Source of the DNA: a virus
Direction: 5' to 3' (one strand)
Length of the DNA: 23,773 nucleotides
IMG/VR virus record: IMGVR_UViG_3300004481_001118
A model generated the notes under the pieces. It ran no database searches. It had not been told where the DNA came from and saw only the letters and a list, made by a program, of their open reading frames with translations. Every line of letters starts with the position of its first letter. Position 1 is the stretch's first letter. Shown here one piece after another: positions 645-12,781 of the stretch. Position numbers and translations under genes: made by a program.

Positions 645-1487
645 ATGAGTCCATCCAGTATCCTCGGCACAATTTCCTCACCATTTCATGCCGTGAACAG
701 TGTTCGTCCAGGTGCGCACCGTTGGTCAGACAAGTTCCCCGGATCAAATGTCCACATCCCAGGTGGCTCTCGTGAGGTTATGGACAGTTCTTCTTGTTCT
801 TGTTCATCATATTCATCATACCGTTCAAGGATGGGTTACATCCACGACATACTTCCAGCGATCCTTCATCCGGGCTCGCGTCTGAGGTTCCTTGGCCTGC
901 CGTTCAGGTGGTTTCCGTTCGATCCTGAAAGATCTCGCGAGGGTACGAATCTTGCCAAGGGAACACACCTGTGGAGAGAACCCTTCTGTCACCCAGGACC
1001 TGATGAAGCGTTGTTGTACAACACGATGCTCTACACGTCCGGTGCACGAGCTCAGCGAGCTGTCGACACAGACAGGCTACGCTCTGAACTCATCCAGGCA
1101 AGGTACCCGCAGAACATTGAAATGCACGCTCGTTTCTCTTGCTCTAGTGAACGACTCGTTGATTACGTACCGAACGAATCGTGTCTTGTTCTGGCTGTCA
1201 TCACGTTTGATTGTCTCCCGGCCGAGGAGCGTTCCAGGATCGTCAGGAACAGGATCAAGACAAAGGAAGCGATCCTACGTTTGGGTTCTTCAGATTGGAC
1301 ATTGGCTGGGAAGATACCAGCTGTTGAGCGTGTCGAGGAACGTTATCTATCGTCCGCGCTTTCCTGCATGTTTACCCCATGGATCATGATCATGTCTGTT
1401 TCTTCTCCTCCCGCGTCCGAGGTGTCATTCGGTTGGACGAACGCATTGGAGTGTTTTGAACGTGTCAAGACAACAACACCCACCTGA
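645..1487 (+). CDS. hypothetical protein; start and frame uncertain (GC-rich region with two long overlapping open frames)
   Basis: Longest ORF here (280 aa). The first ~60 aa are S/P/R-rich and not protein-like. From the internal ATG at 831 the translation (MGYIHDILPAILHPGSRLRF...) resembles the PG/GW family. The competing frame 700..885 carries a GWV motif. No opposing ORFs. Confidence 0.3.
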   Translation: MSPSSILGTISSPFHAVNSVRPGAHRWSDKFPGSNVHIPGGSREVMDSSSCSCSSYSSYRSRMGYIHDILPAILHPGSRLRFLGLPFRWFPFDPERSREGTNLAKGTHLWREPFCHPGPDEALLYNTMLYTSGARAQRAVDTDRLRSELIQARYPQNIEMHARFSCSSERLVDYVPNESCLVLAVITFDCLPAEERSRIVRNRIKTKEAILRLGSSDWTLAGKIPAVERVEERYLSSALSCMFTPWIMIMSVSSPPASEVSFGWTNALECFERVKTTTPT

Positions 1488-1785
1488 TGATATTCACCCG
1501 GGAATGATGATCATTTCTGTCGAGTCTAGAGACACACCTGCGTACAGTGCACCTGAGGCATGGAGATCGTTCAAACGTACGGGAGGCTATGTCTATGTGT
1601 GGAATGTTCCCGATCGTTCAGCCTCTCTCGTGCTCGCGGTCGTGCTCATTAGCAAGAATGCAATTGAACTCAAGGATGCTCCGTATGCTGCCATGATCCT
1701 CAACGAGAATGGCTATGGTTGGATACGATTCGTCCCCAGCCTGTACAGGATCTTGTCCGCGGTGAATGGGTGTTCTTCAAGGTGA
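1456..1785 (+). CDS. PG...GW small paralog family member
   Basis: N-terminal IHPGMMIISV and C-terminal GYGWIRF motifs. Overlaps the upstream gene end. Confidence 0.5.
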   Translation: MNVSRQQHPPDDIHPGMMIISVESRDTPAYSAPEAWRSFKRTGGYVYVWNVPDRSASLVLAVVLISKNAIELKDAPYAAMILNENGYGWIRFVPSLYRILSAVNGCSSR

Positions 1786-2081
1786 TGATGCCCATCGTTC
1801 CAGGATCATTGCTTAGGGTGAAGATCAACTACTATCCGGTCTATGATTCGCACTTATCATGGTCAGTCGCCCACCCATACACGTACCTCCGCGCGCTCGA
1901 GCGCCATGAGATCATCACAGTTCTTGCTGTCATTGATGACGGTCCGTTCAATGACAAGGTGCTGTATTCAGAGCTGTATTCAGACCAGAATGGTCGCAGG
2001 TCGTTCATCATCTCCAATGCGGGTACAGGTTGGATCATGTTGTTTGAACACGAGTTTGAGGTCATTGCTCATGGGCATTGA
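1785..2081 (+). CDS. PG...GW small paralog family member
   Basis: ATG at 1785 overlaps the upstream TGA (TGATG). Motifs MMPIVPGSLLRV ... GTGWIML. Confidence 0.6.
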   Translation: MMPIVPGSLLRVKINYYPVYDSHLSWSVAHPYTYLRALERHEIITVLAVIDDGPFNDKVLYSELYSDQNGRRSFIISNAGTGWIMLFEHEFEVIAHGH

Positions 2082-2403
2082 TGTTGACTACGCGCTCGTT
2101 CCGGGTTTGATCCTCATGAACCGCAGGTTGTGCTACAATGTGTACAGGACCCCGCCCATGAACGATCCGTACGAGTTGAGGTCGTTCTACATTCCAAGGA
2201 ACACAGTGTTCCTCGTTGTCTCCGTGTTGTCTCCCGCGCCTGCCCACGAGCAGTCCGGTGAACGGCAACACGTTCGGCTTGGTCGGTCCGGCAGCATCGT
2301 TGTCAGAGACTACAGGAACCTGCTCGTTGTCTGCGGCAAAGGACTCGGTTGGATCTCTGTCTCTGTAGACCTCTCAGACTTTGGACTAGAGAGGATCATG
2401 TGA
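2071..2403 (+). CDS. PG...GW small paralog family member
   Basis: Internal ATG at 2071 of the track ORF 1843..2403. Motifs ALVPGLILM ... GLGWISV. Confidence 0.55.
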   Translation: MGIDVDYALVPGLILMNRRLCYNVYRTPPMNDPYELRSFYIPRNTVFLVVSVLSPAPAHEQSGERQHVRLGRSGSIVVRDYRNLLVVCGKGLGWISVSVDLSDFGLERIM

Positions 2404-2407
2404 TGTT

Positions 2408-2746
2408 ATGTCATCAACAATGACAAATACGAGGATCGTACCGGGCACCCTGTGGATACCCATACGGCCATTGAGCCGGTCTCCTCATGATTCGCTTATG
2501 ATCACCTCTCCACTCTGCCCTGTCTATGATTCCCCGTACGCCTGGTCGTCGATCGTGGGTCGCAGGTTCCTGCGTCACCTCAAGTACGATCAACCCATCC
2601 TGATCATCTGTGTGTTCCAACCTCCCAGCGTGTACAATGCCGATAGGACGATCATCTTCATCCTTGATGATCAAGGGTTGGGCTGGATCTCATCGGACCC
2701 ACATCGTGTCGATCACCTGTTGTGTCTGACACGTGGTGGTGTGTAG
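2408..2746 (+). CDS. PG...GW small paralog family member
   Basis: Motifs RIVPGTLWI ... GLGWISS. Confidence 0.6.
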   Translation: MSSTMTNTRIVPGTLWIPIRPLSRSPHDSLMITSPLCPVYDSPYAWSSIVGRRFLRHLKYDQPILIICVFQPPSVYNADRTIIFILDDQGLGWISSDPHRVDHLLCLTRGGV

Positions 2747-2758
2747 TCTACCCGCATT

Positions 2759-10978: not shown

Positions 10979-10985
10979 TCAAATT

Positions 10986-11315
10986 ATGGAATTAAAGCGC
11001 GTAACACACGATGGACGTGAGTTTGTTGTCGGTGAACTATACGCTTCTCGTGCCTCAGGCTTGGCATCATTAAGAAGGCTGAAGAACATAGAATGGACGG
11101 TCTTGCCTGCAGACCCAACACATAGGCATCGATTTCATTTTGAAAAAGTCTTTGCCATCGACTCCACACTCCCTGGACCGACGTCGGACACGTTTATGAC
11201 AGCTAACCCATCAAACTATGATCATGTTGACATCATAATGTTGTGCACCGCCCGAGCCAGGCTTGACACGTTCATCCTTGAAGAGATGAAGAGAAACGGG
11301 ATGACAAAGACATGA
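10986..11315 (+). CDS. hypothetical small protein
   Basis: 109-aa ORF in an operon-like context. ATGA overlap with the next gene. No family motif. Confidence 0.45.
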   Translation: MELKRVTHDGREFVVGELYASRASGLASLRRLKNIEWTVLPADPTHRHRFHFEKVFAIDSTLPGPTSDTFMTANPSNYDHVDIIMLCTARARLDTFILEEMKRNGMTKT

Positions 11316-11653
11316 GTACCATCAAAACGTATGACTCCATCGTGGACAATCGTGGACTTAACGTTTTTCCAGTCGTCATCACTGTTGACCGTGACAATGG
11401 AACGCTCTCTCCCGGTACGTTTGTAAGACACGTGTACGTGAAGGATTCGCTCGGTATCATCATCTCCAACACGAACGATCGAGCGTGGCGTGTTCTCACC
11501 GTCCTCTGGTCTCAGTTCAATGACCCGCTGTCTAACATCATCATCAAGCAGCGAACAATGAACTCGAAATCAAGAAGGCTCAACGTAAAGTGGTCAAGCT
11601 CAATGTCAATGCCTAGTAGTGTGGCTGATCACGTCATAAGGTTTGTCAAGTGA
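11312..11653 (+). CDS. PG...GW family-like small protein
   Basis: Motifs LSPGTFVRHVYV ... RAWRVLTVLW. Confidence 0.5.
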   Translation: MSTIKTYDSIVDNRGLNVFPVVITVDRDNGTLSPGTFVRHVYVKDSLGIIISNTNDRAWRVLTVLWSQFNDPLSNIIIKQRTMNSKSRRLNVKWSSSMSMPSSVADHVIRFVK

Positions 11654-11982
11654 AGATAGCGCCTGGACAACAGTGGATGTGGGATCTCAAAGTGGGTTCT
11701 GATCTGTGGGCGCTCGATGTCGTCTCAGATGAAAGACGTGCAAGATTTTTCTTCATGAGTTCGAAGATGATAAAGAGGGGCGACACGTTCATTGTCATCT
11801 CAACACACGATCCTGGGCCAGCTAAGTTCCCAACGTTGCCTGACAGGTACGATTCAATGGGAAGATATGACGATGAAACACCTGAAGAAAAGGTGTGGCA
11901 CATCGTCCTGCTTGATGACGTGCTCGTGTGGATTGATGAAGGAAGCTTTCTTTCGGCAGCAATCTTACTATCTGAGGAATGA
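11650..11982 (+). CDS. PG...GW small paralog family member
   Basis: GTGA overlap start. Motifs KIAPGQQW ... VLVWIDEG. Confidence 0.5.
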   Translation: MKIAPGQQWMWDLKVGSDLWALDVVSDERRARFFFMSSKMIKRGDTFIVISTHDPGPAKFPTLPDRYDSMGRYDDETPEEKVWHIVLLDDVLVWIDEGSFLSAAILLSEE

Positions 11983-12270
11983 ATGTCAACACTGAGCACA
12001 TACAACATCAAGACCTCTGGGATGTGGTTCACGTCACAGGATGGTAAGTGTTGTGTCGATGAACTCGCACCCGGATCGATCATCATCGCCCCCTGGATGC
12101 ATGGTACTTATGGCATATTGATCTCAAGAAACGATGAAGAGTTCATGATCTTGTGGTCAGTAGTACCGAGTGACGACTACGTGGATGTTGCGGGTGACCT
12201 GGCTAGAGAGATCAGTGATGAAATTGACGCCGAGATCTTTCGTGACATGAGGATATTGAACAATGAATGA
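11983..12270 (+). CDS. PG...GW small paralog family member with acidic C-terminal tail
   Basis: Motifs LAPGSIIIAPW ... MILWSVV, then a D/E-rich tail. Confidence 0.55.
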   Translation: MSTLSTYNIKTSGMWFTSQDGKCCVDELAPGSIIIAPWMHGTYGILISRNDEEFMILWSVVPSDDYVDVAGDLAREISDEIDAEIFRDMRILNNE

Positions 12271-12781
12271 CACAGCGCCTAGAACAATGCCTCTCATGTG
12301 TAATCGCGCCGAATGTGGCACGACTCTCAAAGATCATGGGTTCAAACGAGGTGACATCGTCATGTACCATGACCTCGTCAAATCAACGGGAGGCATCCTG
12401 TATAGGATCGTTGAAGACAACCCACACGTGTGTGCAGAGTACAAGCACATGACAAAGCTCATAAAGTCAAAACGATACAACTACAACACAAGCTCATATG
12501 AAGAGTACACGAGGAACAGGACAGAATCAGGTTGGTTCAACGTGAACGGGAAGAAGGTCATGGAGTGCGCGGTGTACGGTTACGTCAGGATCAGTCCTGT
12601 GTTCACGTTCTTTCCAACGAGCAAAGGCAAGAAACCCAAGGGGAAGAATTCAACGATCATCATCACCTACAACAGGTTGGTCAACGAACTAAAACGCGTT
12701 GACGTTGTCGAGCTCGGCACAAAGTACGTTGAGCTCGGTAACATGATCCGTGAGATCGCAACATCAAGGGCGAACGACTGA
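12263..12781 (+). CDS. SH3/KOW-like small-domain protein with C-terminal helix motif (subfamily B)
   Basis: FKRGDIVMYHDL ... SGWFNVNG, then the C-terminus VDVVELGTKYVELGNMIREIA, which is shared with the next two genes. Confidence 0.55.
   Translation: MNDTAPRTMPLMCNRAECGTTLKDHGFKRGDIVMYHDLVKSTGGILYRIVEDNPHVCAEYKHMTKLIKSKRYNYNTSSYEEYTRNRTESGWFNVNGKKVMECAVYGYVRISPVFTFFPTSKGKKPKGKNSTIIITYNRLVNELKRVDVVELGTKYVELGNMIREIATSRAND

Follow-up and report, generated by a model that had tools for sequence, protein, structure and literature searches.

Repeats of about 80 amino acids (aa), known as GW modules, occur in surface proteins and bind lipoteichoic acid. Domains of the SH3_3/SH3b type (PF08239) are found in lysostaphin, in NlpC/P60 enzymes and in phage endolysins; the ligand of such domains, a peptide or a part of the cell wall, is held in a groove that runs between an RT-like and an n-Src-like loop. 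The expansion of a small domain within one phage genome has been described for Bacillus phage G, in which a zinc ribbon is present in about 35 copies, a number that was called unprecedented (Iyer et al., 2021; PMC7824862). Phages have also been reported to encode major vault proteins (MVPs), the function of which is unknown (bioRxiv 10.1101/2023.11.10.566534). Here, we describe a tandem array of small paralogous genes at positions 1456-12781 of the IMG/VR virus record IMGVR_UViG_3300004481_001118, a stretch of 23,773 nucleotides (nt) that constitutes an entire JGI metagenome contig and is referred to in its full length as the window. Judged by sequence profiles and predicted structure, the array proteins belong to the bacterial SH3 (SH3b/SH3_3-like) superfamily, in which they form a branch that carries an additional N-terminal PGD-L-V strand. 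Both fold and superfamily were known already; the novelty lies in the family as such, in its proteins being stand-alone and presumably cytoplasmic, and in an expansion to 20-40 tandem copies.

Alignment of 19 core domains from the window with MAFFT brought the N-terminal P-G and the C-terminal G-W into register, with P and W invariant. The aligned motifs read h-x-P-G-(D/S/T)-h-h in the N-terminal strand and G-x-G-W-h in the C-terminal strand (h, hydrophobic residue), so that the two motifs on which the initial annotation had based the family were borne out by a proper multiple alignment. For a broader view a set of 103 domains was assembled from six loci and 22 further proteins obtained by database search. 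Of these domains, 100 have the P, 102 the G and 99 the W, and the conserved positions were P, G, D, L/I and V/I in strand 1, a mid-domain P, L-V-I-[SA], W-x-[FY]-V-L, a G and the final G-W. Hidden Markov models (HMMs) built without the tested domain (leave-one-out) recovered 16 of the 19 core domains at E<1e-3 and the remaining three at 0.004-0.03, while the best E-value obtained with reversed sequences as controls was ∼0.06-0.1. All matches of the family HMM fell on the annotated strand and frame.

The structure of the array proteins was predicted with AlphaFold2. The model of 3584-3829, computed with the 19 paralogues as alignment, contained seven beta-strands and had a pLDDT of 90.6. In the model of the diverged protein 11650-11982 (pLDDT 72) the core strands were kept at high local confidence and the loops were long and of low confidence. 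The predicted fold thus agrees with an SH3-type beta-barrel of five to seven strands, as had been suggested from the sequence signature. Foldseek searches against PDB and BFVD gave SH3-like matches only, all of them weak (E>=0.01), and a sequence search of PDB with the family profile gave only matches at E>=0.3, the best of which was a eukaryotic SH3 domain.

The relation to bacterial SH3 domains was clearer at the profile level. When the 103-sequence family profile was compared by hhalign with 18 SH3_3 repeats, a probability of 95% was obtained (E 3e-8, 52 columns), and in this alignment the mid-domain Pro of the family corresponded to the 'R-x-G-P' position of SH3_3 and G-x-x-G-W-I to the SH3_3 ending. 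The comparison with GW repeats gave 38% over 22 columns, and the full-length GW profile (PF13457, ∼75 aa) was not matched. None of the 33 candidates matched a Pfam SH3 model at E<=1, the gathering threshold was not reached, and scans of every candidate against Pfam, PHROGs, NCBIfam and PADLOC gave no meaningful match. As a profile match to SH3_3 is found together with no match to the Pfam SH3 models, the family belongs to the bacterial SH3 superfamily as a divergent branch that has no annotation and lies outside PF08239 as defined. Its barrel is composed of an extra N-terminal strand (h-x-PGD-L-V) and a canonical SH3_3 core, with one domain of 80-110 aa per gene. The parts of the core are the conserved Pro, the L-V-I-[SA] strand, the W-x-[FY]-V-L strand, and G-x-x-G-W-[IVL], after which a hydrophobic residue is conserved.

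An exhaustive HMMER search over 1.84 billion representative proteins yielded 52 matches at E<1e-3. These were the window's own proteins, ∼27 external PGD...GW proteins of 79-110 aa, a few autolysins with multiple repeats and a chitin-binding repeat protein from an insect, the last of these being probably spurious. The repeats of the matched autolysins are Pfam SH3_3 or GW domains, and they aligned to the C-terminal half of the profile. A word-indexed protein search with the profiles A2, A3 and A4 returned almost only self matches and five external proteins; the external family was found by the exhaustive HMMER search only.

Within 1456-12781 the family comprised 18 robust genes (19 domains) and three probable genes. 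The initial annotation had counted more than 30 members there, a figure that is too high since it included two other paralogue groups, a CxxC protein, the DUF4314 gene and the MVP gene. All members in this range are encoded on the plus strand, and E-values given for them are leave-one-out values unless noted otherwise. The first four genes are located at 1462-1785 (107 aa, E 3e-8; contained in alignment A2), 1785-2081 (98 aa, E 6.5e-6), the start of which overlaps the preceding stop, 2071-2403 (110 aa, E 2.8e-8), which carries a long hairpin-loop insertion, and 2408-2746 (112 aa, E 2.7e-7). They are followed by 2777-3070, in which the N-terminal PG is changed to PW/PA and the C-terminal half is clear; its E-value was 0.006, and 4e-8 with the 103-sequence HMM, in which it was itself included. 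Robust members are also found at 3067-3324 (85 aa, ATGA overlap, E 4e-5), 3334-3582 (82 aa, E 5.5e-10), 3584-3832 (82 aa, the protein modelled above) and 3829-4068 (79 aa, GTGA overlap, E 1.8e-10). The gene at 4079-4567 encodes a fusion of two family domains (162 aa; HMM domains at residues 1-84 and 80-161), and a similar two-domain protein is known elsewhere (P0050). The series continues with 4854-5126 (90 aa, or 97 aa if the TTG at 4833 is the start; E 2.7e-8), 5683-5949 (88 aa, E 2.3e-8) and 5949-6200 (83 aa, E 3e-10).

Downstream of the MVP gene, 9276-9608 encodes a member of 110 aa (E 0.004; 9e-14 with A3, self included), and 9605-9925 a robust one of 106 aa in which AW replaces GW (E 2.8e-4). 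The next genes, 9922-10173 (83 aa, isoelectric point (pI) 10.9, E 1.4e-9) and 10170-10436 (88 aa, E 8e-6), are robust as well. In the member at 10739-10978 (79 aa) WW replaces GW, and the E-value was 0.03, or 4.5e-5 with A3 from which it was excluded. The three probable genes, identified by iterative and hhalign tests (70-95%), are diverged. The one at 5130-5438, a possible member, is devoid of GW and gave E 2.8e-4 with an HMM built without it and an hhalign probability of 70% over only 15 columns. The protein of 10433-10726 reached 80% by hhalign and E 5.5e-4 with A3 (self excluded), and has syntenic relatives in two related contigs (L006 and L008) that are 33% identical by BLAST. That of 11650-11982, with long loops and VW replacing GW, reached 95% over 79 columns and has relatives of 30-35% identity in L006 and L011. 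Probable members were further detected outside the array, at 20499-20813 on the plus strand (hhalign 95%; E 4.9e-5 with an HMM built without it) and at 20823-21131 on the minus strand (90%; E 2e-4). The plus-strand ORF (open reading frame) at 18491-18745 is a possible member (93%; E 0.005), and 16333-16638 is perhaps another. Since 18491-18745 bears the family signature, the longer minus-strand ORF that overlaps it (18445-18783) may be spurious. For unrelated neighbour genes, the hhalign probability against the family was ∼0.1%.

The range 1456-12781 holds 28 small plus-strand genes in addition to the MVP homologue, and the plus strand from 1456 to 15036 is an unbroken chain of 33 ORFs. This layout matches the dense plus-strand run of 240-340 bp genes, with stop/start overlaps and a phage-style organisation, that had been noted initially: 19 of the 32 junctions in the chain overlap, mostly as ATGA/GTGA, and a further 8 have gaps of 0-12 nt. 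TGA is the stop codon of 28 of the 33 ORFs. DNA repeats, sigma-70 promoters and intrinsic terminators were not found above chance in the window, and it contains no tRNAs. Overlapping or abutting stop and start codons, combined with no promoter or terminator signal above chance, suggest that the array genes are most likely expressed from long polycistronic transcripts and would be translationally coupled. Diversification by DNA repeats and recombination cassettes or by a diversity-generating retroelement was considered as well and is unsupported: repeats were not above chance, and Pfam scans of the larger ORFs revealed no reverse transcriptase.

The family recurs as a tandem array in other contigs. 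L003, a Logan contig of 21 kb with 47% GC, contains ∼40 HMM-positive tandem ORFs on one strand (3345-17590), only one of which was in the HMM training set, and shares synteny with the window over four flanking genes, one of which encodes a phosphatase that is 60% identical. L006 (NCBI VFSW01022720.1) has at least 13 members on both sides of an MVP that is 70% identical to that of the window. At least six members are present in L007 (62% GC), two in L004, and one two-domain fusion in L005. By anchoring on MVP in IMG/VR four more loci were obtained (MVP 66-72% identical), with family matches beside the MVP gene in each: 12 in L008, 12 in L009, 6 in L010 and 3 in L011. The family is therefore a tandem multigene family of 18-21 genes in the window, ∼40 in L003 and 3-15 in L006-L011, and these copy-number differences between relatives, together with the ∼40 copies of L003, agree with the massive duplication and diversification that had been claimed.

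The members vary in a regular manner. Over the 103 domains the four core strands are near-fixed in length (standard deviation (sd) 0.2-0.9 residues), whereas the three inter-strand loops range from 3 to 34 residues (sd ∼4); the regions of variable length thus sit between the conserved strands. The pI of the members lies between 4.3 and 10.9. An N-terminal extension fit for a signal peptide is missing from all of them, and many begin M-I-x-P-G, that is, at the first strand. Paralogues of the window are ∼20% identical in pairwise comparisons, with a maximum of 33%, and are no nearer to each other than to members from other contigs, which indicates that the window array is old. In L003, adjacent copies were more alike than random pairs (0.30 vs 0.23, permutation p<2e-4), a pattern that recent tandem duplication leaves behind.

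When the window is compared with its relatives, the identity is 66-72% for MVP, 64% for GroEL, 54-61% for IF-1 and 57-60% for the phosphatase; for array members it does not exceed 35%, and for most of them no one-to-one orthologue could be detected. The turnover can be followed in L008 and L009, whose DNA is 90-98% identical. A member-sized indel is located at L008 6429-6781, and the copy at L008 8410-8715 (vs L009 8293-8715) is hyper-diverged, with 45 non-synonymous differences where its neighbours have 1-9. The indel and this copy resemble the outcome of gene conversion or of a local replacement inside the array.

Selection was assessed as the ratio of non-synonymous to synonymous substitution rates (dN/dS). 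Among the window paralogues this ratio was rejected as meaningless, because at ∼20% identity dS is unusable, and the close pair L008/L009 was taken instead. The pooled dN/dS of 11 orthologous members was 0.23, and ∼0.12 without the hyper-diverged outlier; the values for MVP and GroEL were 0.08 and 0.04. The MVP value marks a constrained, functional gene. In the other two forward frames of the array members dN/dS was 2.1 and 1.5. As it is low in the annotated frame only, the annotated frames are coding, and purifying selection acts on the proteins, which are functional. A gene-wide dN/dS above 1 was not seen in L008/L009, and gene-wide diversifying selection, for which the initial annotation had suggested a dN/dS test, is not supported by these values. 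The long-term divergence is best explained by gene turnover and fast loop change, not by gene-wide positive selection. The repertoire would be maintained by a birth-and-death process in which copies are duplicated in tandem, lost and replaced, and the individual copies are under purifying selection.

With no signal peptide or catalytic domain, with fixed strands, variable loops and a wide range of pI, the proteins can be read as cytoplasmic binding modules that would differ in specificity. We tentatively favour the view that the array is a birth-and-death repertoire of small intracellular binding modules of different specificities, which would most likely serve host takeover or counter-defence. 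Each paralogue would then most likely bind a different macromolecule of the host or of a competitor during these processes, and the binder or anti-defence roles named in the initial annotation are plausible. Several points weigh against this view. The binding role is deduced from the fold and from the way in which the members vary, and the intracellular location, the time of expression and the nature of the targets are likewise inferred. The nearest relatives in structure and sequence are extracellular binders of the cell wall and do not bind cytoplasmic proteins. A gene-wide dN/dS below 1 provides no positive signal of an arms race, no match to known anti-defence or defence models was found in PADLOC, PHROGs or NCBIfam, and the persistent adjacency of array and MVP in one clade could mean a more specific, vault-related role.

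Cargo genes of encapsulins adjoin the gene of their shell. By analogy, the barrels could be cargo, adaptors or lumen/surface decorations of a nanocompartment built from MVP, with a conserved face that docks and loops that vary the function; we regard this as unlikely. The MVP gene lies within the array on the same strand (6530-9196), members are found directly beside MVP genes of 66-72% identity in five more loci (L006 and L008-L011), and the phage MVPs reported so far have no known role (bioRxiv 10.1101/2023.11.10.566534). All six linked loci, however, belong to one clade, and shared ancestry accounts for the adjacency equally well. L003, which is as near to the window as L010 is (phosphatase 60% vs 57% identical), has its ∼40 copies in the syntenic position, and an MVP was not detected in 20 kb of this contig. 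Solo or paired members exist in contigs with no MVP nearby. Conversely, members were absent within 10-12 kb of MVP in the huge-phage loci L001 and L002 and in L012 (MVP 46%) and L013 (38%), the MVPs of these four loci being 38-46% identical to that of the window. Conservation is also spread over the whole fold and is not focused in a terminal targeting peptide. The vault link suggested in the initial annotation consequently holds as an adjacency within one clade and fails for the L003 array and around distant MVPs. Given an array in 20 kb of L003 without MVP and distant MVP phages without members within 10-12 kb, a cargo or adaptor function stays a minority hypothesis. Its narrower form, a cargo/adaptor library of a phage vault-like shell that MVP would form in the infected cell and in which each paralogue would sequester a different host molecule via its loops, is given less credence still.

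Tandem families of packaged proteins are known from large myoviruses, such as the variable internal-protein locus of T4-type phages and the paralogous head proteins of phiKZ-like jumbo phages. That the array proteins are packaged in the virion, as hyperplastic internal head or ejected proteins or as capsid decorations, appears improbable. A small gene nearby, 15844-16287, includes a segment that matches the N-terminal region of T4 Gp23, and it has a PG..GIIxS..LWS module in common with two genes inside the array. Against packaging, no capsid, portal, protease or tail gene was found in the window or in the related loci examined, and the neighbourhood of the array is non-structural, with genes for methionine aminopeptidase (MetAP), a phosphatase, IF-1, GroEL and a homing endonuclease; near solo members elsewhere, nucleotide-metabolism or ligase genes are found. 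A common N-terminal targeting or cleavage motif outside the fold is also missing, many members starting at the first strand.

Binding to the cell envelope, for instance as free subunits that attach to peptidoglycan or teichoic-acid-like polymers and act together with a lysin, either at lysis or on cells nearby, has in its favour that the sole sequence-level relatives are the wall-binding SH3_3 and GW domains. We hold it to be more improbable than packaging. No signal peptide or membrane segment was found and many proteins begin at the first barrel strand; the window contains no lysin, holin or catalytic partner; 20-40 very different copies are ill-suited to one conserved wall ligand; and the profile similarity to GW is weak. 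Finally, a compositional or frame artefact, with the true genes in other frames, would draw on the long antisense ORFs that overlap parts of the array (e.g. 3388-3714, 10453-10872 and 11646-12086 on the minus strand) and has a negligible probability, being refuted by the alignment, by the recovery of core domains with leave-one-out HMMs, by reversed sequences that give nothing below E ∼0.06, by the confidently predicted fold, by ∼80 further copies in independent contigs that are all in matching frame, and by an excess of synonymous change that is confined to the annotated frame.

The non-array genes recognised by Pfam scans of the larger ORFs were those for MVP, DUF4314, MetAP, a homing-endonuclease-like protein, a phosphatase, IF-1 and GroEL. 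The MVP homologue (6530-9196, plus strand, 888 aa; MVP_shoulder 8e-30, Vault and Vault_3) is a context gene and not a family member; it is full length, contains both Vault repeats and the MVP shoulder, and has a coiled-coil tail in which E, K, A and Q are abundant. The closest MVPs among GenBank phages are those of the 'huge phages' LR756500, LR756501 and LR756503 (462-735 kb), at 39-41% identity, and IMG/VR viral contigs with lengths of 16 to 140 kb encode MVPs of 66-72% identity. Searches of GenBank phages by megablast with the whole window and by tblastn with one array member were without match, and those with GroEL and the phosphatase provided no hint of taxonomy. The tight packing with ATGA/GTGA overlaps and the MVP matches in huge phages and IMG/VR viral contigs indicate that the source is a large uncultured phage and not a eukaryotic giant virus. 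A gene for DUF4314 (PF14192, ∼70 aa) is located directly upstream of MVP at 6224-6439 on the plus strand.

MetAP is encoded at 13449-14189 (plus strand). The 3' end of its gene overlaps by 32 nt with 14158-15036 on the same strand, a gene with three NUMOD3 motifs and 51-nt internal repeats at 14716-14953. The latter looks like a homing endonuclease of the GIY-YIG type, the GIY-YIG being read from the N-terminal sequence with no Pfam match, and its GC content, at 0.41 the minimum of the window, suggests a mobile element that was inserted recently. The phosphatase (16659-17456, plus strand) is calcineurin-like (Ser/Thr-type), and the genes for IF-1 (17626-17898) and GroEL (21804-23441) are located on the minus strand. 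MetAP, phosphatase, IF-1 and GroEL form a translation and protein-folding toolkit that is typical of very large phages; the best identity of GroEL in the phage collection was only 45-48%. At the other end of the window, where the GC content is higher (0.58 across the first kilobase), the plus-strand ORF 645-1487 (280 aa) has no homologue in any library or related locus. The C-terminal third of this ORF, with '...CLVLAVI...' and '...SFGW...', recalls a degenerate or interrupted family member, at an HMM E-value of only 0.2-0.5.

Several plus-strand genes inside the array range are not members. A zinc-ribbon-like CxxC...CxxC protein of 89 aa is encoded at 4567-4836; it has no Pfam match and is unrelated to the family. 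The small genes at 5435-5686 and 10986-11315 were counted as non-members. Two smaller paralogue groups have in common with the main family only the start, a 'PG/GD + hydrophobic strand'. The first, with the signature PG..GIIxS..LWS, consists of 11312-11653, 11983-12270 and 15844-16287, all on the plus strand. In the 147-aa product of 15844-16287, residues 104-144 match model positions 8-48 of 376 of the T4 Gp23 capsid protein (PF07068, E 5e-12), and the middle part contains the PG..GIIxS..LWS module at 35-38% identity to the other two. Relatives of this gene are present in L003, L010 and L011; its product could represent a fragment of a capsid protein, a decoy or an assembly factor. The second group (x-[VR]-GD-x-V ... 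Y-K-I ...) comprises 12263-12781, 12781-13104 and 13088-13462 (plus strand). Its relatives in L008, L010 and L011 are 28-38% identical, and beyond the first strand no kinship to the main family was detectable.

With 20-40 tandem copies per genome, the array is among the largest gene-family expansions reported for a phage. It concerns a family that is absent from Pfam, PHROGs, NCBIfam and PADLOC and is tied to bacterial SH3 domains by structure and profile. Natural binder repertoires are designed in this way, with hypervariable loops on a conserved scaffold, and if the paralogues do bind different host targets, they would constitute a ready-made catalogue of small inhibitors or probes. The array would also exemplify birth-and-death evolution in a virus, and its recurrent adjacency to MVP gives a concrete, testable lead for phage vault biology.

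Compared with known systems, the array proteins are closest to the SH3_3/SH3b domains, with which they share the Pro, the central strand, the W strand and the G-x-x-G-W-[IV]...L ending. They differ by the extra conserved N-terminal PGD-L-V strand, by their stand-alone form without signal peptide or catalytic domain, and by their presence as 20-40 tandem, highly diverged copies in a phage, whereas SH3_3 occurs as 1-16 similar repeats within one secreted wall hydrolase. The GW modules of Listeria InlB, Ami and Lmo1076 also have a Gly-Trp dipeptide in the penultimate strand, and GW autolysins were among the matches of the exhaustive search; here, however, the profile support is weak and the array family shows no sign of export. 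The product of the DUF4314 gene is likewise small and part of the same operon-like run, but it is recognised by Pfam while the array family is not, and hhalign (10%) revealed no detectable homology between them. The zinc ribbon of phage G is alike in that a tiny domain has been multiplied tens of times in one phage genome and was proposed to provide a set of specific binders (PMC7824862). In contrast to it, the array family has an SH3-type barrel, is strictly tandem and probably translationally coupled, and is common to a clade of uncultured phages in which its copy number varies.

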